A stretch of DNA of 58,335 bases, counting the filler, from Sphacelaria rigidula (Eukaryota): NCBI GenBank assembly GCA_964200075.2. It is 8 parts of 8 records of this genome, joined end to end, with 100 filler letters (N's around TTAATTAATTAA, not from the genome) between each part and the next. Parts side by side here need not be neighbours in the genome. Positions count along the whole stretch, not along the records: positions 36,526 to 43,729 come from CAXNAA020015980.1; 7 more parts are not named here. The stretch is one strand, 5' to 3'. The notes under the pieces are model-generated. The model was not told where the DNA came from and made no database searches. It saw nothing but the letters and a program-made list of their open reading frames with translations. The position numbers were made by a program, and so were the translations under genes. Position 1 is the first letter of the stretch. The number at the start of each line of letters is the position of its first letter. Shown here piece after piece: positions 7,206 to 51,146 of this stretch.

Positions 7206-7686
7206 NNNNNNNNNNNNNNNNNNNNNNNNNNNNNNNNNNNNNNNNNNNNTTAATTAATTAANNNNNNNNNNNNNNNNNNNNNNNNNNNNNNNNNNNNNNN
7301 NNNNNGCTCCGTCCCGGCTTCGTAGGGATGCGAGGTCAATGGTGTTATGACTATGGCATGCATGATCATGAGAACATCCCTTCCTCGGGACGAGTCCATG
7401 GTGTCAAGGAATCAAGCCATCTACACCCGGTATACACCTTGCATTTTGGTGTTGCGGATTGGGTCAGCACTCCCAGACCGCGTCAACTGTCGTCAAACGA
7501 ACTCGATCAATGACTTCTTATCTACACACGAACTCGCGCTTTCGAAGGTGGAAATCAGATACAGCACCCCAAGTTTTTAGCAGGAAATTTCGTGAATTTT
7601 TTGTGACTGGCGATTTTCTGAGGTTCTTTTGCTTGCCGCCGCTCATCGCATTTGGGACCTGAAAATACCAGTATCGGCTCCGTATT

Positions 7687-14508: not shown

Positions 14509-14796
14509 CANNNNNNNNNNNNNNNNNNNNNNNNNNNNNNNNNNNNNNNNNNNNTTAATTAATTAANNNNNNNNNNNNNNNNNNNNNNNNNNNNNNNNNN
14601 NNNNNNNNNNGGATATCAAGGGCCTCAGTGGCCAGCTATTACAGAAAGCATGTTGGGCCTTGTGGAAGTGCATCTCGGAACTGAAACGATTCACTCTCTG
14701 ATTGACCGCTTTTCACTCTCAATTGCATCATCTACTCTCAATCTCACGAAAACACTTCTGTCGGGGATCTGAAGATATTTGTATCCGCTCCACATT

Positions 14797-20531: not shown

Positions 20532-23500
20532 CTAGGCGGACAAAATTGCAGGGGGGAACGACGTATAGTGTAGATATACGGGTGAGAGGTGAGGTCAAGA
20601 GGGGTAACTGATAGATGGATAACGTCCCAGTAAAGGTATCATTTATTACTTACTGACGAGGGGCGTAAGCGGTACAGCACCGGGGGGGGGCGACTCGCAG
20701 GAAGACATTATACTGTGAAAGGAGTGACATACCATTGGTCGACATTTCAAGCGGAGAAACCGGCTCGCAGCGTGAGACGTTACGCAGTACTTACTGACGA
20801 GGAGTGACAAAAATCACTCCCTTTGATTGTTGAGCCCAAGTCTGACTACGGGGAATCTTTAATGTTCTATCCGATTAATACGAAAAAATAAAAAAATGAA
20901 CAAGAAAAAATGGCGATTTATTTTTTTCTTTGGCGGAGGGGGGGGGGGAGGGGGGGGTACTTATTTGTTGCTTGCCATAGTCGTTTGACCATTGACCACG
21001 GCTCCCCTTCAGGACGGAGCACCCTTCCTACTCCTAATAGAGATACCTCCAACATTCTTGTGCTCATTATTACTTTTGTGGTGGAGAGTATCGAGACTCA
21101 TTTCACGATTGAAGCTCATTCTGCACTCTCGGCTGCTCTCAAGTGTGTAGAATTTAGTTGAAGCGGGTGTGGAAAAAATGATGAACAGACATCGAGAGCG
21201 CACCGACTGGCCGGTCGGCTACGTGACCCAAACAACACTGGAGATCGACTTCCGTGCCAGGACTCATCTTTCGCTTTTTATCAAATGTATTGAATAGCAA
21301 TCGTGTATTTTTGCTGCTCTTGATTTTTTTCATGTTCGACCATCATCTCCTTTTCCTCTGGGGCCGGCGGCGGTGGGTTTTCGGACCGCTGGATTATGAC
21401 TTCCTGGCCGGGCTGCAATTGCCTGGTCCATCATCTCCTGCTTTACAAACATATTTCCCTACTTGGTCACACAAAAAATGAAAAATTGCCTGACGACACG
21501 ATAAACAGTCCTCAATGTGCTCCATCTATGCAACTAGTATACTATGCTGTACTCTCTCCCTGTACAGTCAGTACAGCACAGTGTCCCATGATCGGGGTTG
21601 CCAACCGCACTATAGTGGGACCCCGCACTGTAGGGGGTCCCCCACTGTATTGTTGTTACTGTGGAGCACCAACTATCGTCATTGTCCATACCATGAGGGG
21701 GGTCCTCCACGGAACGAGGGGGGGGGGGGGGGGGGGTTACCGATGGTGGGGCTCGCACTGTTTTGACGTGCGTAGGGGGGGCCCCCGCCTTGTGGTGGTC
21801 CCCTCCTTTTTTTGTNNNNNNNNNNNNNNNNNNNNNNNNNNNNNNNNNNNNNNNNNNNNTTAATTAATTAANNNNNNNNNNNNNNNNNNNNNNNNNNNNN
21901 NNNNNNNNNNNNNNNTGAGCCGATAATCGAAACTGTCGCATTGAACAGAGACCAATCCCAAAATAGATTTTTTGTCTGAAGTGCCGTTCAAAGAGATACT
22001 CTACAGCGCCAGCGCACCGGAGACTGAAAAATGCTAGATAGGATGATCCAGAAAAGACGAGAACAAAAAAGGACAACCAGACGGTAACGAGGAGGGAAAA
22101 CAAGGAAGTATGACCTCCCTCGGGTTTCGGTCAAGTAGCATCGTCATGGAAGCACAACAGACACGGCATGTCTAGCCTACACACGGCATACCGCTACCAG
22201 CAAAAACAGAATCTGTTCATGTGTTCTTCCGGGGGGATTTCGAGGCTAGGGTGCCCCCGAAGGATGTGCAGGACAACTTCGGAGCGAAAACGGTCAAAAT
22301 GGAGTGTTAAGCTGTTTTCGCGTTTCCCACCATTTTTTGCCCCTTTAATAGGCAAAAAACAAGGTAATACCTTTTCTAGGCCATTGCCCTATTTCAATGG
22401 TTGCAATAGGCTTGTACTACACGCAGTACATTCTTGTTCACTGCAACTCTTGGCAATATGTATGGAGATTAGGGTGTGCACAATTTCGAAGGACAAACAC
22501 CGTTGTTCCCAGATGAGGGTGGTGTTTCCACAATAATATTATGGGATCGCGGATTGCGGAAAGAGAAACGTTTTTTCCACCTCATTTCTTCACTTGTTTA
22601 CCGCACAAACTTCGGGAGATGCGCACGCACAAACATGCATGAGACTGCACGCCCTCTCTCTCGTTTCCAGCACGCCTTCTTCCACAGTATCGAGACTAAA
22701 ATGCGCCGCATCTTCTGCTACTACTTTCAAATTAGATTCAGCAGCGTGCAAAAGTACACACTTTGTAAATTTCGGGGTCGCTAAATCCTATACGGGTGAG
22801 GTTCACGAACTTGGATACCCCTTGTGCTTTGCGCATCATGTCTCTGGAGGAAACGATGACACCCAGGTGCCCACACGTCAAGAGCCAGTCAACTTTTCAA
22901 TCTGGAACTTTTCCGTCGTTACATCGATACAAGAAGCGAAGATTTCAAGATCGATGCGATCTTTGGTAACGTGCTACACCCTGACGTCTCACTTGAAAGT
23001 TGTCACGAGTACAAGTCGACCAACCACAATCACCGGTCATGAATGATCGACCCTTGATGGCAGCGTCCAATTGCTTGATGCAAGCAGTAGTGCTGACTTA
23101 CGAGCAGGAATGCACATTTCTCAAGTTAGAATCGGTCGGGGACGTACTCCAGTTACTCTATGAAAGCATCAAATAGCAGGGGAGACGACGGCAAAACGTG
23201 CATGAAAAAAACTACGAGAATGACCAATGTTTTTTCGACATCCAGAACGAACTGTTTTCGCGCCGACCCAGATAAAGCATGTTCTCTATACGACCAACCG
23301 AATCAAAGTAGCTAGTAGACGGACCATTCCGCCTTTGGGAATGCAAAGAAACACAGTATTGTGCACCTGGATGACAGCATCAACTGGTAATCATGTTTCG
23401 GAACACATCAGGTGTACGCCCATCACCAACAATCCTGCAATATAAGCGCGATGTATGGATGATAAAGCACCAACCTAATTTTCTGCCGCACAGCAAAAGT

Positions 23501-28159: not shown

Positions 28160-31100
28160 CTGGAGCATGATCAGTTGGCGTAGTCAACAAGTGGGGGTGG
28201 AAATAACGGTTCAAGAGGAAAATAATACAGCGAGACATGGCCACCATGGAACGTGAAACGGCTGCAACGCAGAAAGCGAAACACAACCTCTACGACGCTT
28301 ACAGCATTCCGACCGTGCATCCATTTGTTCGACTGCTGAAATTGTCATAAAATCAAAATTGAAGGCTAAACTAATCCGAAGATTAGCTCCAAAAAGTAAT
28401 GATCGAGACAAGAGGGGAACGGGGAAATAGTGATGGACACCCTGCCGTCAAACTAGTACACGTGCGACGCACATGGACCCAAATTTTAGAACAGATTCAC
28501 ATCGAAACCTAGTCATCAAACATTGGGCTAGAGCCCAGCACCTCTCCTGGCTGCATTGAGAGCAGGTAGGTGATGAGCGTAGAGCTAAAACAAGAAAAAT
28601 GGGCAAGATCAGGACAAAATACCACGTACACAGGCACACAATCACAGCACACGATAGTCTACCGAGAGCCGTACTGCCTCTGGATATACGTAAACGCCCT
28701 AGTTGCTGTGAAAAATTCACAGCGCTGGCTTTTTTGCTCGCCGCGTCAGAGACATGAATAGGCTTCGCTAATAACCTTCCATCAATGACGTCACTTGGTT
28801 GTGCCCCGACTTGAAGCACATTTTTCTCAAGTTTACCATGCTCCACTGAGCTACAGCCTCAAAATTTCATCGATAAGAGCTGATGCACCAACACGCACTT
28901 CGGAAAGGTGTCATTCTTCAATGATTGATCAACAGTCGCACGTGAAAGGCCTTTTTTATACAGGTTATCAGTGGAATGTACATGGGTACATTTATGAAAG
29001 GGCATAAGGAGTATTAGTTTTATCCTCCATGGGAGCCCTAACTCCGAACGATTCACGGTTAGGACGAATCGTCACGACTACGAGTCACCAAATCCACGAT
29101 TTCTTCGGCCTGATTGCCCANNNNNNNNNNNNNNNNNNNNNNNNNNNNNNNNNNNNNNNNNNNNTTAATTAATTAANNNNNNNNNNNNNNNNNNNNNNNN
29201 NNNNNNNNNNNNNNNNNNNNCCCTCAGTGAACATACCACTAAACACCAAGCAGCCACCCAAAACGCTGACGCTGTTCCCACTCTTCATTCTCAGATGGCA
29301 TCTCTTCACGTGAGCCCTGATGCTATGAAAATCTTTCCTGGCGATAACCTCAGCACCCAAACCGGTGCTGAATCCTCTGATCGCCCCACTCTGGCTTTTG
29401 ATCCGTCGCCCACATTGGAACAATACCTGCCCACGAATGAAATACACGACCGGCTTCGGCAAAAGCGTCGACCTTCATTCCACCGCGCCATTGGTACAAC
29501 TTCTCAGAGGCTGAACAAACAGCTTGCTGGGATCAGATCCGCAGTAACGATCTAGTACACCACATGGGACTCGAGCACAGAGGGTTGGAATTTGCCCGCC
29601 TACAGGTATATACAAGGGTCCAGGATCCCGCTCAGGCCTCCCATAATGTAGATGTCCACCCCGAAAAAAAGCCAACAGAACAGAACGAACTAGAACGCGC
29701 GATACGCACATCCACAAAGGCTCTGGAAATTTCGGAACAAGAATATAAGCTGTTGACAAGAAGACACTTGGAAGCTTCGCATCATTTCGGACTATGTTGG
29801 CAAGTCTGGCAATCACAACTGCGTTCGTACGGTCGCCTGCTCCGCCCCCAAGGCGGCAACTGATTCACCGCCTGACCCACCTGACCTGGCACACTTTCAA
29901 CCACATGCACCGGCCCACTCACAAAACGGAAGACGTTTACACATGAGTGGACCTAGTGTCGCGGCTGAACCCCGCCAGGGCGGTACCCACACAGCACTGA
30001 TGCTCACGTCACAACTTGACAACCTTTCGAGAACGTTCTACAAGTTGCGGAGATTCCAAATAGCATACAGTGGGGTAACCCAGGACGTGTTGCTGAGCCC
30101 AAAAGCTGAGCCCCTCCACCTGCCTATGTATTTTTCTACTTCTGTAAGTCATTTCTCATTTAGTTGGTACAATCCCACAATTAGAAATATACAATGACCG
30201 GTAATTCACTCGAGAAGTACCCAACACTTTTACGTCAACATGTTTTTTTCGCTCGACCAGGTCACGCACATCGCACGCACGAATCAACGGCGGCCACCAC
30301 GGGTTCAACCATGTGGTGTGGGTTCCCTGGATATTCTGACACTGTCTTGAAGGGTTCCAAGACAGTGGAAGCCCGTGCACCGTTGCATGGCTATCAATTG
30401 AGCAATGACCAAACCCAACGCTTTAACCCTGGATTTGATCACTCAGTTTTACATTCATCAGGTACTAATCATATTCAATCGAATCCCCTCCCTTCAAAGG
30501 AGAGGAAGTTATGTGGTGCAGTTTCTTACGCATCAGGAGCCGAAACATCCTCTGGTACGATAGACACTGCTGCTCCGACCGTTCATCGGAGAACACAAAA
30601 TTCGAAGCATCACACTCAAGCACCCCCCAACTGCTCAAGTGCCCGGATAACCACCCTACCGAGTTTCGCAAAGACTACGGTACCCGGTTCCCTTTTATTT
30701 GATGAGCGTAATTATTCCTTGAAAGGTCGCAACCGCAAAGAACTCATGCTTTCCGTCGCTCAGCAGGTTGGAATAGAACCCCAAGTGACAGCGACTCAGG
30801 TGGTGCGCCAAGAGCGTGACCTAGGTTCGACTGTCCAAGAACTCATTTCAATAGCTCCTGGAGCCGCCGACCCTTTTGTGCCCTACACGCGTCACGCTTC
30901 GAGGGCTCCTTCAGATGATCATGTACATAACCCTGATGTAGCAGGCGCACGTGAACTCCAAGGAGGAGATTGCGTGTGGGCTCAGACAGATGAAAACCTT
31001 AGAGTGGAACAGGCCGGTACTTCCCAGATTTCGAACAGATCGTTACTGCTCCCTGATCACCCCGCGTGCACTACGTTAGAACCCATTTCCGATGAAGCGT

Positions 31101-36330: not shown

Positions 36331-36809
36331 AGCAATGGACTAGAAAAGGCATACCTTCTCGTTTTTCGCCCAAGAAAGGTACGAAAAATGACTAGAAACG
36401 CGAAAACAGCCAAACACGCCATTTTNNNNNNNNNNNNNNNNNNNNNNNNNNNNNNNNNNNNNNNNNNNNTTAATTAATTAANNNNNNNNNNNNNNNNNNN
36501 NNNNNNNNNNNNNNNNNNNNNNNNNAAAAAATTTTTGGGCTTTTGCCAACATGTACAGCATGAAAGATCATGAATACCCCCCCCCCCCCCCCTCCCCCAC
36601 GTCAAGAGTGCAAAATTGCAAGCCTTCAAAGGGCGAATGTGTACCACAAAAAAAAAAACAAGAAAAATAGTCCATCGGTCGCCCCGGTCGAGCAAGACAA
36701 AACAAGCGAAAAATTATTGAAACAAAATTGTAGGCCCACAGTAATCGGCACGGGCAGTCAGTTAGTTCCAAGCATTCTCGTGCACTAATTCGCCGCGTAT
36801 AGATTATAC

Positions 36810-39800
36810 CTGGAAAGCTCGACGTCGAGGCTGGCTTTATCGGCCTTGACTTGGTTGTTGGCTTCCAGCGAGCGGATCATGTAGTCCTGAAACTGTCGCC
36901 GAGAGGAAACAACCTGCGGAGAGGCATCATACAGACACGCCAAAATTTTGGGGTAGAACCTACAAGGTGCCTCTGAAGTCTTGCGAAGGCACATGTGGTC
37001 AGCTTCGAAGGGCTGCTTCATGTCCAACACCTTGTGGCCTTCGTGGGCCGGACTTGAGAATGGAATTGCACATCGCGGATGTGACCTGAGCTGTGTCGAT
37101 CAAAACAGACGCGCCGTAACTGCGGAGTGCGGTCAGGATATTCCCGTTCCCCTACACGCGTGCATTTTCGTTACAGTCCGCAAATATTGTCTCTCAGCGA
37201 CAAATAATGAGCTTTTGGGTCATACTCTAGACAACATGTCTTGCACCCAGCATCTTCTCTGGCCCAGAATCTCGAATCAAGGTCATCTTTACGTTGCACT
37301 TATCTACAACGGGACGGAATCTAAACGACCCTGAGCTCGAGCACAACTCTCAAAAAGTAACATCCTCACCAGCTCTTGTAACTCCACAACATCTCGTGGC
37401 AAAAATTCGTCAACCAGTGGGTCATCAGAGACTAGCTGGGCAGCAGACTCTGCTGCACCAACCAGAGACTCTGGGGGTGTTGCGGAAGCAGGAGCATCCT
37501 CGAGACCGCCAGCCGTGGAGAAGCCCGCCGCTGCTCCAGCCCCGGCGATCTCTCCCGCAACGGCTCCCGCCACCCGGTTAGGTTCTTCGCTCCCCCACCT
37601 TGCCTCCCACCCAGGTCTCTGATTGCGAGCTGTGTCGGACATAAGTAGACCAAACAATCAGATTTTCAGAGATACGACGCGGCGACGATCTTCGCGTTAC
37701 TCTTAGGGTCCTTGCGGCGTACAGGAAGAGATAAAACCGAGTAGAAATTGCGTTAAGAACCACGTCAACCGTAGTGGTCGCCGCAGCACCGTAGACACCA
37801 GTACGGCAGACACGAGTCAAAATCATGTGCAGGACAAGCCACACGGTACCAGAAACAGCTATATTAAAAATGCTGCAAATACGGCATACTGTATGTCGAG
37901 GGACATTGAGCAGGGGGGAAATAGTATCTCGCCAAATACACCGTAAAAGACAGACGCAACTTGAAACAAGAAAGGCGAACCAAAGGTAAGTCATCGGCAG
38001 TCACGTACCTACATAAGCAGGGTGCGCGTCGCTGGGCACAGGCGCGGCTGATCCTTCGACCGTGACAGTCGTTGCTGCGGCAATCGAAACGCCAGCAACT
38101 CGCGACACCTCTTCCGCCCCCCACCTTGAGTCCCACCCCGGTCGACCGTTGCGCGCTGCCAAAACAAAAGGATAATCGGTAAAGCGCGCAAACGATGAGC
38201 GAGGGCATATGTACAACGGTATTGGTTCCACAAGAGATGAGGCGCCCACGGTAGCTTGTCGACCAAGTCGTTGCGGGTCGAGTTAGTCCGACAAGTAGAC
38301 AGGACGACACGCTTCGTATCATCCGCATCATCCGCATCGTTCCCGCTAGCATGCCGAAATACAGGCTGGTTCACGGTTTTGACCCAAAATTAACTCACCA
38401 ACAAACACCATGCGCAATACCTGCTGCCAAAAAATAGTCGCAGACATGGTATCATTTTGACCGGCATGAACAACAGAAGAGGGCGACTTAGCCGGATTAA
38501 CAACATTACAGCGGTGGCGCGAGGGGCAAAGGGAGCCTCGACCAATCCGTACCCTTCAAATTTTTCTGAAATTAAGCACGCAAATTCCGAACACAACTTT
38601 AACCCAATCTCGACATGTTTCAAATCGGAGTAACCGTCATCAGCTCGGAAATCTAACGGGAAAACCCCCCCGGTCAACATGGATTTTGAATAATGGTCCA
38701 ACATACAACAAAAGGTACACCCTCACATTTTTCGAACAGAAGAGGGTGATGTATTTTTCGGTCTGGGGCGCGGCGCTGCACGCGGGCTGAACACCTCGAG
38801 AACACGTTCCAGCGCCTCAGCCCCAAAGGCCAAGGTGTCTGGGCAGCATGCCCGATCATTTTCTTTTTCGTACGTGGTACTAGGCTTAAAAACGACGCGG
38901 AATTGGAGAGAGTGTTAGATTACCCTTTTTTGTCAACAACCAGGAGGGTACGCCCTACTCTGCTACAATCTCATCCCTTGCCCTTTGTTCACGCGTGTAC
39001 CCTTCATGTCTTTCCGAACCCTCCTTTTCCGTCCTCGGGCCAGACGCCTCATTATTTCAGGCCTGACGAAGAAGAGGTGGAAACAGAAAATACTGACGGC
39101 AACCATTTTTACAGCGGAAGGGCACAAAAGACTTCACCATCATGAGTCATGCGGGCACCAAAAATGTCACCCTGGTGTGGTCGGATTAGTTTTTTCCAGT
39201 GCGAATGACTCCCCAGGACCCCGGGACCCCCGATAACAGGCGAAATGATATGAAATAGAAACCACACCACTGCTCTTCAAACGTTTTGCATTCATCCACC
39301 GTGTATACGTGCAAATTTTCAAAGTCGAGCTCCAAGAATCGGCGTGAGGATTTGCGAATGAATTTCAGGACATGAGTATGAACCAGCCTTTGCGCTGACT
39401 GGAAGTTCGTACGCAACCGGCGCAAAAAATCTGTTTTCAACAATCAAGTCTACACCTCCCTGCCCCACGGATATGAGGGCGAGCCGCAGCACTTTTTTCT
39501 TCGATCGAGAAAATGGGGCGGTGAAATCGACTTGAGCGGATTTTTCTCGTCCTGATGCAGTTGGGTCCTGACGGACTTTCAAGCTTGCGATCGAAAAAAG
39601 ACAGTGAAATTCGTGAAACGGTACAAGGCCACTCGTGTACAGTACAGACAGTCTGTGCTGTCTGCACTGCTTGCAAGCAGTGTCCTGAGTGCGTGCGTGC
39701 GTGCTTGTTTCGTACAGGAGGATATAAAAGAGAAGCGGGCGACGTGCACAGCCCAGGACTATCGGTTCTCTCTGCTTACAATGCGACGTGAAAAAGACTT

Positions 39801-42800
39801 CAGCAACGTGCAGCTTTGTACAGCCTGCACTGTCCATGAGCGTGCACGCAACTCGGTCGCCCACCGTACCACAAAATTCCGTCGCCGATGCCTACCATGA
39901 GAGGAGATGCGCAAAATTCCGCCAACAAGAAATAAACAAAGCACACCCGACTACTGCGGTGTATCTATCCCTCGGCTCAACTCATGCTCTATGCTGCAGG
40001 GTTGCAGTGGTAGCTGAGAATGAGTTGGATGGAGTTTGCATGGTCTTATGAACAGGGCTTATTTGGCGTGGTGCTCCGTAAGATAGGAGTCAAGTGCCGC
40101 TTCGTGCCTTTCGGCCGCATGTTTTCGATCGGAAACGACAATTTTTCACCTCGAGCAATTCTTCTCCGCACGCCGCTAATGATAATTTTGAATTGAAGCC
40201 TTCTAGGAACATAAATGCGGTGGACCTGTCAGATCGGCAAAGAAATATCGACCGCACTTTTTCGATCGAAGAGGTTCCGAGGGCGTGTCTTTGCACAGAG
40301 GTTTTCGATCGAAATTGTGCGGTGGAAAACAAAAATCCCGATATGATAGGTCGTGATTTCAACCATCGTCGTTACTTTTGAAGGTGGTTGAAATCACGAC
40401 CCATCAGATCGGGGTTTTTGTTTTTCACCGCACTTTTTCGATCGAAAAAAGATGTGCTAAGACACGACCCAAGACACGCCCTGAGCGACCATGCCGAAAT
40501 GTACATGAAAGTAAAAATGTTCATCGCATTGCCTGGACAGCAAAATGCCACTCTCTAACGTCCATTTCATCATCTACAACTGTACATATCTTTCCGTCAT
40601 GTACCGGTGTAAGCAGGATGTACGTCACCAGCCGTAGGCGTGCTTGACACTGCTGCTGCCGTCGTTGTCGGCAGTCCTGACACTCGGGCACTTTCCTCCG
40701 CTCCCCACCGCGCGTCCCACCCAGGACGGTTGTGACGTGCTGCGGAAAATGGCAAGGCGTTCAAAAATGCTGAAATCTTTAATAACTGAACGCATTACAA
40801 ATCGTGAAGACGCCCGGCCAGGTGATACTGCAGCGGCCATAGCTACATTCTCTGTTTGCCTACCGGCGTAAGCAGGATGTACGTCGTTTGCTGCACTCGC
40901 GCTCTCCACCCCTATTGCTGCCGTCGTTGTCGGCAGTCCTGACACTCGGGCACTTTCCTCCGCTCCCCACCGCGCGTCCCATCCAGGTCTGTCGTGACGA
41001 GCTGCGGGAAATGGCAAGGCGTTCAAAAATGCTCAAGCCTTAGATAAATGAGTGCATTGCAAGACGCTTTACAGACGCCGCGGCTAGAAGACACTGCAGC
41101 GGCCATAGCTACATTCTCTGTTTGCCTACCGGCGTAAGCAGGATGTACGTCGTTTGCTGCACTCGCGCTCTCCACCCCTGTTGCTGCCGTCATCGGCAGT
41201 CCTGACACTCTGGCGCTTTCCTCCGCTCCCCACCGCGCGTCCCATCCAGGTCTGTCGTGACGGGCTGCGGGAAATGGCAAGGCGTTCGAAAATGCTCAAG
41301 CCTTAGATAAATGAGTGCATCGCAAGACGCTTTACAGATGCCGCGGCTAGAAGACACTGCAGCGGCCATAGCTACGGTCACTGTTTGCCTACCGGCGTAA
41401 GCAGGATGTAGGTCGCGTGCTGCACTCGCGCTCTCCACCCCTGCTGCCGCCGTCGTCGGCAGTCCTGACACTCTGGCGCTTTCCTCCGCTCCCCACCGCG
41501 CGTCCCATCCAGGTCTGTCGTGGCGAGCTGCAGCAAAAGTAATGATAAAGATAAGGTCTCGACAAACAGATGTATCCCACGATACACTGTACACACCGGC
41601 ACTGGATAAAACTGCGGAGGATACCACCACATACTGAATCGTGTCGTCGAGGATGCTTTGATGCTTTACACGACAACCACACACTCGTCTCGATCATGCC
41701 CTCCACAAATATCATAACACTTCGCCAATCATGCGTTGGCTTGTTTCTCGAAGGCACACCTGCGTAGGCCGGGTTTACGTCTCCTGCAGTCCCCGATGTC
41801 GGCAGTCCGGATACTCTGGAGCTCTCCTCTGATCCCCACCTTGTGTCCCATCCAGGTCGGCCCTGACGAGCTACAGCAGAACACATGGCAGAGCGAAGAT
41901 CACCATTGAGCGAAACTCATCAAGCTAAAGTACAAACAACGACTTTCAAGAAGATATCGTGTCGAGAGAGTGATGGCACGATAGTGACACACCGTGACCG
42001 GAGCTTCGCGGTACGGCCAGATAAGGGCTTTTGTTATCGACAAAAAATAAAGGTCCGAACTTTCGGGAATCTCCTAGCGGTCCGCAGGGTCTGTCATTAT
42101 ATAGATCTGGCGCTGCCTTAAATACCTCGTTAGATGGTGCTGATCTCGTCGTTTGCTTGCCTTTGCCGACAAAATAACAGACAGGGTTATGCTACCTGCC
42201 CGTGTATGGCGTTCATAACTGTGGTAAACATCTTTCTCGCGATTTCTCTGTGACACGGGGGGACAGTTGGATAGGCTAGGGTGTGATCGACCGGGTCTCT
42301 CGGGATGCTGCAGCAGCACTCATGAGTAAAAATACCGACTGTAGAAAGCCCCGTGCAAAGATGGCAGCATGCTTGCTGTCTGTCAGTTGTATGCGCAGAT
42401 ACACGCAAATAAACCACCAGATGAAGACTTTTCAGATGGTGCGGTAGGGTACACTCGTAGCAGTACGGCAGGCTACTGGATTGTTTCTGCTCTTCACTTC
42501 GAAAGTGCGTATGTCTGCAATCTGCAAACGACGACCACCGTGCTTGACCCCGACAGCTTCACCACCGCTGCCCGGGCACACATCGTTCAACGAGATAGAT
42601 ACCGCCATCCCGCGGTGCTTTGTACTCTACGACATAGCCCAGGGTGCCACTAGCAAGTTTCTGATCATTCTCGCATGCTTGCGAGCGCCGCGGCGTGCGC
42701 CGAGGGCAGCTCTGCGGAGGATTGCGCTGCGGTCCGAAATGTTCGGAGTTCTCCCAACGTGAAGGTTGGGAGGAAAAATTTAGCCGCTTCGTTTTCGGAG

Positions 42801-43191
42801 AACGCCAAGCGCGATGGGCGAAAACGCCTAAAATCTTGGAGATTTCCGAAAAAACTGTGTCGATAATCAAGGCCCTAAGAAGCATACAGGATAAAAAATT
42901 CGCCTGGGCCGTCCCGATGATCATCGGTGAAAATATATCAAGCGACCAAGATACACTCCGTATCTACTTCTTTCACCAAGAAGATATTGTCTTGTTCTCC
43001 CCAAACATCATCACGTACAACACTCCTCACGAAACCTAACTCACCAGCGTATGCAGGGTGAATGGTAACATCCGCATCCGCGGATGCCGCAGATTTCGTG
43101 GTACTGACAGCCGGCGTGAGCCCACCTCCGGAAACACGTTCTACCTCCTCCGTCCCCCACCTTGCCTCCCACCCAGGCCGTTCGGCGCGTG
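36810..43191 (-). CDS. Partial multi-exon gene for a tandem-repeat protein of unknown function; repeat exons 43191-43045, 41870-41760, 41527-41393, 41264-41130, 41001-40864, 40739-40605, 38155-38009, 37629-37370, then a probable helical exon ~36892/36886-36810
   Basis: Each exon has a pyrimidine-rich (c/t)ag acceptor and a gt donor. The seven upstream exons are phase 1-1 with lengths 147, 111, 135, 135, 138, 135 and 147 nt. All eight encode ARxxRPGW[DE]xRWGxEExxRVxG, and seven end in [H/N]PAY[ATV]. Divergent copies keep the motif through synonymous changes. Confidence 0.85.
40302..40448. repeat. Intronic hairpin (~64-bp arms, ~20-nt loop)
   Basis: ttttcgatcgaaattgtgcggtggaaaacaaaaatcccgat...gtcgtgatttcaacca pairs with tggttgaaatcacgac...atcggggtttttgtttttcaccgcactttttcgatcgaaaa. 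Confidence 0.85.
40605..41527 (-). repeat. Recent tandem duplication of an intron+exon unit (~259-266 bp, 4 exons)
   Basis: Intron sequence (gaaatggcaaggcgttc..aaatgct; ctgcagcggccatagctac..ctgtttgcctacc) is repeated along with the exons. Exon ends are spaced 259, 266 and 263 bp apart. Confidence 0.92.
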
Positions 43192-43407
43192 CTGCATTTG
43201 GGACGGCAAATGACGACGGTGTCACAGCTCAGGGCACGATGCATGGTTTTATGAAACATCCGATGTGATTCGTTCGCGAGCAGTGATGGAACTGAAAGAG
43301 AGCATTCGGTCGCGTTCGCTCTATTCTTCAATACCATCATCGCGTTGAGTTTGTCGCTTGAATCTATGCTCGCACATTTTTCATGTGAGCGTGTTCAACA
43401 CCTTGAC

Positions 43408-43615
43408 TGCGAGGGTAGGCCAACTGCTGAATGGGCATCACTATTCACTTGAAAAAAGTATGCGTGATCCAGATGGACTACCAGCATCGCGGTCTGAGGG
43501 TTAACCCTTAGACCGCTATGCGGGTAGTCCATATCGATCACGGATACTTTTTCCAAGTGAAAATAATAATGCCGATTCAGCCGGTGACCTACCCTCGCGG
43601 CCAAAGGGTTAACTT
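43408..43615. repeat. Imperfect ~200-bp palindrome centred on agggttaaccct; the same ~100-bp unit recurs at 46240-46530, 46810-46895, 47020-47150, 47770-47830
   Basis: The unit gccgattcagc..gtgacct.ccctcgcgg.c.aagggttaa is found in both orientations in two contigs. Confidence 0.75.
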
Positions 43616-43654
43616 GAGTTTCAAACCGTGGGCCAGAAAAACGACGCATGGAAA

Positions 43655-43655
<1 letters not shown>

Positions 43656-43695
<40 letters not shown>

Positions 43696-43729
43696 GATTA
43701 TGATTATGATTATGATTATGATTATGATT
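43656..43729. repeat. Compound microsatellite (ATT)n(ATGATT)n at contig end
   Basis: Directly visible. Confidence 0.95.
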
Positions 43730-43904
43730 NNNNNNNNNNNNNNNNNNNNNNNNNNNNNNNNNNNNNNNNNNNNTTAATTAATTAANNNNNNNNNNNNNNN
43801 NNNNNNNNNNNNNNNNNNNNNNNNNNNNNATGTCTGACACAGTTAAAAGCCTCTTTTTTCGTGCAACCAAATACCCCCCCCCTATCGTAGGAAGACTCGG
43901 TTAA

Positions 43905-51032: not shown

Positions 51033-51146
51033 NNNNNNNNNNNNNNNNNNNNNNNNNNNNNNNNNNNNNNNNNNNNTTAATTAATTAANNNNNNNNNNNN
51101 NNNNNNNNNNNNNNNNNNNNNNNNNNNNNNNNGGGGGGGGGGGGGT

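Follow-up and report, generated by a model that had tools for sequence, protein, structure and literature searches.

A 58,335-base stretch of genomic DNA from the brown alga Sphacelaria rigidula (assembly GCA_964200075.2; the whole stretch analysed is called the window here) carries, on the minus strand of one of its pieces, a gene whose exons repeat a core built around Trp and Arg. The repeat gene is a real, spliced brown-algal gene, and we regard its family as a plastid scaffold of uncharacterised function and as a credible candidate for a brown-algal linker of Rubisco. Our leading reading, held tentatively and argued from sequence, is that the protein would act as a stromal, dimeric, multivalent tether, with Rubisco its most likely client.

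Eight matches to a degenerate DNA motif for the core lie in the window, confined to a single strand and to positions 37593–43177; 100 shuffles gave an expectation of 0.00. On the minus strand we find eight homologous exons, seven of pure repeat (E1–E7) and an eighth (E8) that combines the last core with unique sequence, followed by a ninth exon, E9 (Table 1). All seven pure repeat exons (7/7) have an AG acceptor, a GT donor and phase 1 at both ends, with the core at the exon start. A script that joined the nine exons returned an open frame of 436 codons with 0 stops, and the product contains 16 Trp and eight RWG cores at spacings of 49, 37, 45, 45, 46, 45 and 49 residues. A preliminary description of this locus, made from the DNA alone, had proposed at least eight homologous exons spliced into repeats of about 37–49 residues; the core spacing and exon joints in three sequencing runs bear this out, and the two end coordinates it gave, 36810 and 43191, coincide exactly with exon ends.

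The three runs (X6–X8) come from one study, are labelled 'RNA?' as a guess and were used at contig level; we treat them as transcript-bearing because their contigs join exons at GT..AG. Seven joints were found (Table 1), with CT..AC ends that read as GT..AG on the minus strand; the E5/E4 joint is absent among the joints listed. None of the seven occurs in a DNA run from the same organism (X1), which covers the exons and unique introns evenly at a depth of 10.8. A lack of spliced transcripts, which the preliminary description had named as a refuting result, is not what these runs contain. Upstream of E1, a loose end at 43192 (X8) translates as another repeat ending ...HPAYV, and downstream of E9, a loose end at 36810 (X6–X8) stays in frame and reads ...SLKAKLAAKE. 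Because the transcript extends past both ends of the piece, the gene has at least nine repeats. The used donor at 36810 and the loose ends also mean that the segment first described as C-terminal, although present after the repeats, is not the end of the protein but merely the start of a longer domain, the transcript continuing into a coiled coil. One joint in X7 (40739>41130) links E6 directly to E4 and omits E5, reflecting either exon skipping that changes the number of stickers or assembly collapse among near-identical repeats.

In the window the sticker takes the form HPAYAAR-x-x-RPGW-x-x-RWG-x-EE-x-x-R, and successive stickers are separated by Ala/Ser/Thr spacers of ~10–25 residues. Thirteen core residues are invariant in 8/8 copies (R1, R4, P5, G6, W7, R10, W11, G12, E14, E15, R18, V19 and G21). 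Over 21 core codons (15 pairs of 6 copies), the pooled proportion of synonymous differences (pS) is 0.68 versus 0.19 for replacement differences (pN); synonymous sites are near saturation between older copies, and replacement sites are not. This contrast in rates indicates purifying selection on the core peptide, as had been supposed, and the proteins of Ectocarpus, Scytosiphon, Cladosiphon and Hapterophycus retain this core as well. E3–E6 are a recent tandem duplication that includes introns, with identities of 81–94% among the four exons and 76–95% among introns I3–I5. The array therefore represents about five old independent copies, not eight, and E3–E6 do not count as separate evidence for the earlier argument that the core persists in copies whose introns have diverged. 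The tandem duplication shows recent growth of repeat number.

Using E8 as query we recovered 13 proteins of 152–2000 residues at E ≤ 0.01 (among 3878 candidates); those with names belong to Scytosiphon promiscuus and to seven species or strains of Ectocarpus, with Cladosiphon okamuranus (P0007) found as well. E8 is 57–59% identical over its full length to four Ectocarpus proteins. An eight-exon profile searched against 1.84 billion representatives returned 45 proteins at E ≤ 0.001, 10 of which reach 1e-10 and 4 of which reach 1e-30; a Branchiostoma collagen-like protein from this search (P0057) was dismissed as spurious. Ectocarpus siliculosus CBN78743.1 (D8LQH9, 'expressed unknown protein') and its orthologues in Ectocarpus species, Scytosiphon promiscuus, Cladosiphon okamuranus and Hapterophycus canaliculatus are true homologues of the window gene. 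The window part is 44–52% identical to the Ectocarpales proteins over 391–473 aligned residues, and the two share the repeat core, a Gly/Ala segment and the C-terminal coiled coil. They differ in repeat number and spacing, the orthologues having 6–7 repeats spaced 35–59 residues (40–59 in four of them, 35–59 in the Cladosiphon model P0007) whereas the window gene has at least nine, spaced 37–49.

Full-length Ectocarpales relatives are 655–708 residues long and run from a signal region through an acid-free stretch, a conserved N-terminal helix (50 residues), the 6–7 repeats and the Gly/Ala segment to a C-terminal helix (145 residues), ending ...LELQAGG directly after the coiled coil. The Gly/Ala-rich segment is kept in all brown-algal orthologues aligned. 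We considered it as a membrane anchor and rejected this: its hydropathy is borderline by hand estimate, and Glu lies inside it in several orthologues, which makes a membrane span unlikely. The N- and C-terminal helices of P0002, P0006, P0022 and P0043 share a pattern (acidic/Gln, Tyr/Phe, Met/Leu, Ala/Ser, with Glu-Lys/Arg a few residues on); a shared origin of the two coiled coils, or pairing between them, is possible. The Cladosiphon okamuranus models P0007 and P0066 extend past the normal C-terminus and have a precomputed PF13621 match there; this extension is probably a fused gene model and no real domain of the family.

More distant members retain less. Metagenomic sequences keep just AY..R...RWG.EE..R, the family-wide core, in 2–10 copies; many of the distant members lack the first Trp (GW) but retain RWG.EE..R. 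Eight of the 11 distant members listed are basic (isoelectric point (pI) 9.06–9.97), and those eight have 2–10 stickers. In several metagenomic members the N-terminus likewise pairs a signal region with an aromatic residue, and one more sticker sits at the extreme C-terminus. Two members (P0043 and P0033) have a second repeated motif between the stickers (...PPEV.AADHGLR.DGGV.G.TLAERV...) that is absent in the brown-algal proteins.

Searches of domain, structure and literature resources returned no described relative. Pfam gave nothing at E ≤ 1 on four open reading frames of the window and nothing reaching a curated cut-off on ten relatives (E ≤ 0.1), where there was sub-threshold coiled-coil noise only. 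A sequence search of the PDB gave antibody chains only, at E 0.065 or worse, and hence no solved relative; in the ESM Atlas the best score for P0002 was 0.86, to unrelated clusters, and P0043 was without a usable match. CBN78743.1/D8LQH9 is not mentioned in the text of any paper searched and has no described function there. In the papers listed for the core strings, RPGWE and ARWGSEE have 0 occurrences and the HPAYA matches are all unrelated, and no description of the repeat family was found in the literature searched.

The N-termini of the orthologues point to the plastid. A hydrophobic signal region ending ...NG or ...SG is followed directly by F-T-x-P, so that the junction reads G|F, and then by a stretch of 41–65 residues that lacks Asp and Glu and abounds in Ser, Thr, Arg and Gln. 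This succession is seen, by eye and with a hydropathy script, in 5/5 brown-algal N-termini, and a similar one in 6 other members. A signal peptide that is followed by Phe at +1 and then by a transit-like stretch constitutes the heterokont bipartite 'ASAFAP-type' signal, which marks stromal proteins. Judged by these features, the repeat protein is probably nuclear-encoded and imported into the plastid stroma, and a probable plastid presequence, for which the preliminary description had to look beyond the contig, is seen in the orthologues. A signal peptide alone would send the protein to the secretory route, and all 16 Trp of the window part lie in GW (8) or WG (8) dipeptides, so a location outside the plastid deserves consideration, either as a secreted or endoplasmic reticulum protein or as a GW/WG 'Argonaute-hook' platform. 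We regard this as improbable: Phe right after the signal region and the long acid-free stretch recur in every one of the brown-algal N-termini, a protein with a signal peptide could not meet an Argonaute partner in the cytosol or nucleus, and the GW Trp is the one that many of the distant members lack.

Structure prediction separates ordered ends from a disordered middle. An AlphaFold2 model of P0002, made with nine aligned sequences, has a mean predicted local distance difference test score (pLDDT) of 52.9, with confident helices at 84–133 and 563–707 (pLDDT about 90). Throughout the repeat region pLDDT is below 50 apart from the cores, which form three short helices at ~50–60, and the spacers score 25–35; the disorder anticipated for the repeat region is thus seen in the model, with short helices at cores. 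Two copies of residues 556–708 are modelled as an in-register parallel coiled coil in which residue i contacts residue i, scoring 0.53 versus 0.00 for the best of 3 controls. The mark used for this score is reached by 21/30 proteins solved as pairs and 0/23 solved as single chains; in eukaryotes 17/29 reach it, and just 1/7 of those without an older solved relative. Between runs, at least 94% of contacts are shared, and the partner has a pLDDT of at least 86. The dimer model did not use our alignment, and coiled coils may pass through likeness to solved structures; within these terms the models support a parallel dimer of the C-terminal helix.

The same architecture bears on two readings offered with the preliminary description, a microtubule-binding or kinesin-14-like tail and a multi-core peptide precursor, both of which we now consider very improbable. 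They drew on a resemblance of RPGWD to a motif of kinesin-14 tails and on the general layout of repeated cores. The full-length orthologues, however, stop just beyond the coiled coil, and P0002 and P0006 have no kinesin motor or other Pfam family at E ≤ 0.1; this coiled coil is also what the window transcript runs into. A coiled coil at each end is a poor fit to a peptide precursor, and a single dibasic site in 436 residues leaves no regular processing sites flanking the cores. Both ideas are contradicted by these results.

We compared the family with known Rubisco linkers. Taken as an operational class, such linkers are expected to have at least three tandem repeats with stickers regularly spaced by tens of residues; the window gene has eight cores on the piece, 37–49 residues apart, and at least one upstream. 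EPYC1 (Chlamydomonas), CsLinker (Chlorella) and SUPA1 (Ulva) are plastid proteins with 4–6 short helical stickers and disordered spacers, a layout shared with the window protein (PMC13655443; bioRxiv 10.64898/2026.07.16.738900, in the portion of the preprint available); no sequence relation of the window family to these three was found. PYCO1 (Phaeodactylum), the only linker described for red-type form ID Rubisco, resembles it in coming from a heterokont plastid, in having a Trp sticker beside Arg and Gly (KWSPRGGS) and in its second oligomerising element; it does not condense form IC Rubisco (PMC13655443). PYCO1 has a pI of 10.03 and repeats of ~80 residues and, according to its authors, no homologue outside P. 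tricornutum (PMC10288592). In a motif check, as distinct from a whole-sequence comparison, its KWSP and GTGYNP motifs have 0 occurrences in the window part and 10 relatives.

The pairing of coil and motif has parallels of its own. SAGA1, SAGA2 and a 'bifunctional coiled-coil protein' are described in the abstracts of their papers as long coiled coils with Rubisco-binding elements, and hornwort RbcS-STAR joins a coiled coil to Rubisco-binding or self-associating elements (PMC13655443). All are green-lineage proteins with other domains, and nothing in these sources is evidence of homology to the window family. By sequence, the window family belongs to none of the EPYC1, CsLinker, SUPA1, PYCO1 and RbcS-STAR families. 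Because every stromal sticker-spacer repeat protein in one review is a Rubisco linker (PMC13655443, section 6), we rank Rubisco first among possible clients. The linker-like spacing of the stickers and the basic pI of most distant members speak for the same client.

Several observations weigh against a Rubisco tether. The protein is acidic (pI 5.04 for the 436-residue window part, 4.85–5.23 for mature orthologues and 5.41–7.26 for repeat regions), so that neither the window part nor the mature orthologues reach the pI > 8 of basic linker proteins that the FLIPPer linker screen requires (bioRxiv 10.64898/2026.07.16.738900, in the same portion). The spacers of EPYC1, CsLinker and SUPA1 are ~40–50 residues, by the same two sources and with the same limit on the preprint, and those of the window protein are shorter. 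EPYC1, CsLinker and SUPA1 are basic and wholly disordered, whereas the window family is acidic with coiled coils at both ends, which make up ~30% of the chain in the P0002 model. The N-terminus of the window gene lies off the piece, so a putative targeting signal is seen in orthologues only. Relatives also occur in Laminaria digitata (142 residues, three repeats, on a 4.4-kb contig), Discosporangium mesarthrocarpum (93 residues, partial), Choristocarpus tenellus (137 residues, a coiled coil then a terminal repeat) and the xanthophyte Vaucheria litorea, and the single-copy segment of the last exon exists in at least six further forms, with 49–67% identity both to the Ectocarpales forms and among themselves. 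In the section of Adl et al. 2019 available (PMC6492006), plastids of Laminariales and Discosporangiales are 'without pyrenoid(s)' and those of Ectocarpales 'with pyrenoid'; given the Laminaria, Discosporangium and Choristocarpus fragments, occurrence of the family is not tied to pyrenoid-bearing lineages. Acidity, short spacers, coiled coils and the pyrenoid-less orders together make another plastid partner nearly as likely as Rubisco.

On that alternative, which we hold possible though doubtful, the protein would be a plastid scaffold for a client other than Rubisco (complexes at the thylakoid or envelope surface, the ring nucleoid, the division machinery, or its own stickers binding each other), with a role common to Phaeophyceae and Xanthophyceae plastids in general and independent of pyrenoids. 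The family's presence in Vaucheria and in orders described as pyrenoid-less, the acidic charge, the long coiled coils at both ends, the conserved, hydrophobic Gly/Ala segment behind the final repeat and the probable plastid presequence of the orthologues would all suit it. Glu-Glu in every sticker, though, would fit DNA or anionic thylakoid lipids poorly, and the mix of Arg, Glu and aromatic residues seems better suited to protein–protein contacts than to DNA or anionic membranes. There is likewise no evident membrane span, Glu lying within the Gly/Ala segment of some orthologues, no known family of such a kind was matched in Pfam or the PDB, and no specific partner can be named.

The distribution also bears on the proposal of the preliminary description, a dedicated brown-algal pyrenoid-matrix linker, analogous to EPYC1 or PYCO1 and both necessary and sufficient to condense Rubisco, for which the copies in pyrenoid-less orders would be relics, contaminants or repurposed proteins. 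This we consider unlikely. Every full-length model with many repeats that we found is ectocarpalean (from Ectocarpus species, Scytosiphon and Cladosiphon, with a partial one from Hapterophycus), repeat number is still rising through exon duplication, the Laminaria match sits on a 4.4-kb contig, and those from Discosporangium and Choristocarpus are fragments. According to 2026 reviews (including PMC13655443), the stalked pyrenoids of brown algae are uncharacterised at the molecular level; neither those reviews nor preprints on linkers nor literature searches on brown-alga pyrenoids describe a brown-algal Rubisco linker, in agreement with what the preliminary description had said. Set against the proposal are the acidic charge and short spacing, and the reach of the family into Xanthophyceae. 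In our search the closest relatives of the Laminaria protein are 50–61% identical over 42–45% of the query, so it is not contamination from a sequenced ectocarpalean, and it may come from an unsequenced epiphyte. The word-based searches for relatives scored only the top word-sharing candidates (8000 in one), so the missing long models outside Ectocarpales are weak evidence of absence. Equal presence in pyrenoid-less brown algae had been named as a result that would count against a pyrenoid linker: relatives do occur in such orders, as fragments only, which bears that result out in part. Of the pyrenoid-linker interpretation as a whole, the spliced sticker-and-spacer protein, the probable presequence (in orthologues) and the modelled disorder of the repeat region have stood, while the acidic charge and the relatives in pyrenoid-less orders tell against it.

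Divergence of the last-exon segment gives a further measure of breadth. The forms from three Ectocarpales families are 64–69% identical to one another, and the window form is 56–65% identical to them; from the divergence among all these forms, the family probably spans several brown-algal orders. Since it appears older and wider than the ectocarpalean pyrenoid, the Rubisco tether that we favour would have had an ancestral Rubisco-organising role, used by the pyrenoid and not invented for it. The C-terminal coiled coil would form a parallel dimer in which each chain contributes a disordered arm with at least nine Trp/Arg stickers. The stickers would bind a conserved, oligomeric stromal protein, form ID Rubisco being the single most likely, and having several of them in tandem is reasonable if the partner is abundant, symmetric and oligomeric. 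Such a tether would tie Rubisco holoenzymes to one another or to a structure, and its action would resemble both that of the known pyrenoid linkers and that of the green-algal coiled-coil proteins that bind Rubisco.

A more specific version, which we offer as rather speculative, would have the family serve Phaeophyceae, Xanthophyceae and their relatives as a scaffold that organises Rubisco through a new sticker, AY..R...RWG.EE..R. A dimer with two arms of 6–10 stickers would cross-link form ID Rubisco; exon duplication in Ectocarpales might then have raised the valency enough to yield a visible stalked pyrenoid, and 'pyrenoid-less' orders would keep a lower-valency form whose clusters fall below microscopy.

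Table 1. Features of the repeat gene in the window (window coordinates; X1, X6–X8 are sequencing runs, and a>b denotes a joint between positions a and b)
Feature	Position	Strand	Evidence
E1, first repeat on the piece, 147 nt, phase 1-1	43045..43191	-	joint 41870>43045 in X6-X8; loose end 43192
E2, shortest unit, 111 nt = 37 residues	41760..41870	-	joints 41527>41760 and 41870>43045; core alignment
E3, 135 nt, in 263-bp tandem duplication	41393..41527	-	joints 41264>41393 and 41527>41760
E4, 135 nt, in tandem duplication	41130..41264	-	joint 41264>41393 in X6-X8; 40739>41130 in X7
E5, 138 nt, in tandem duplication	40864..41001	-	3' end, joint 40739>40864 (X8); 5' end, AG acceptor and frame only
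E6, 135 nt, oldest in tandem block, 81-83% identical to E3-E5	40605..40739	-	joints 38155>40605 and 40739>40864
E7, 147 nt	38009..38155	-	joints 37629>38009 and 38155>40605
E8, 260 nt, eighth core, Gly/Ala-rich hydrophobic segment and start of C-terminal domain (DPLVDEFLPRDVVELQEL)	37370..37629	-	joints 36911>37368 and 37629>38009
Gly/Ala-rich segment in E8 (approximate coordinates)	37498..37567	-	alignment of orthologues, columns 620-645
E9, 104 nt, start of C-terminal coiled coil	36810..36913	-	joint 36911>37368; used donor at 36810
Tandem duplication of exon and intron, 263 bp, 3.4 copies, 91% matches	40650..41531	-	tandem repeat; covers E3-E6
Intron, 2449 nt, filled with high-copy repeats	38156..40604	-	X1 depth ~260 to 83,000 in bins of 38210-40609

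The window is made of eight equal pieces of ~7.2 kb, joined through N44-TTAATTAATTAA-N44 spacers (7206–7305, 14511–14610, 21816–21915, 29121–29220, 36426–36525, 43730–43829 and 51033–51132). Genomic context for the repeat gene is confined to one piece, 36526–43729 (from CAXNAA020015980.1), and adjoining pieces are not necessarily neighbours in the genome. The other seven pieces contain no further repeat exons of the gene, and Rfam gave 0 matches on its own piece. Very high-copy repeats fill parts of the introns and upstream flank (38210–40609, 42050–43009 and 43250–43725), with an X1 depth of ~260 to 83,000 versus 10.8 over unique exons. The 2449-nt intron includes a hairpin at 40281–40469 with 90-nt arms that are 84% complementary, similar in appearance to a miniature inverted-repeat transposable element, and the end of the piece (43656–43729) is a hexanucleotide microsatellite (period 6, 12.3 copies).

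Ectocarpus, home of an orthologue, is cited as having stable transformation and targeted mutagenesis (bioRxiv 10.64898/2026.07.16.738900, in the portion available). The gene is a clean example of valency growth through duplication of phase-1/phase-1 exons. It also supplies a concrete candidate for the building of brown-algal stalked pyrenoids, one that is conserved, strongly constrained and probably plastid-targeted, with defined stickers. To our knowledge every known Rubisco linker is lineage-restricted; if the scaffold reading for Phaeophyceae and Xanthophyceae is true, this family would be the first among linkers to be widely conserved, as well as the first to be acidic. Should Rubisco turn out not to be the client, the family would still represent an unrecognised structural protein of heterokont plastids.

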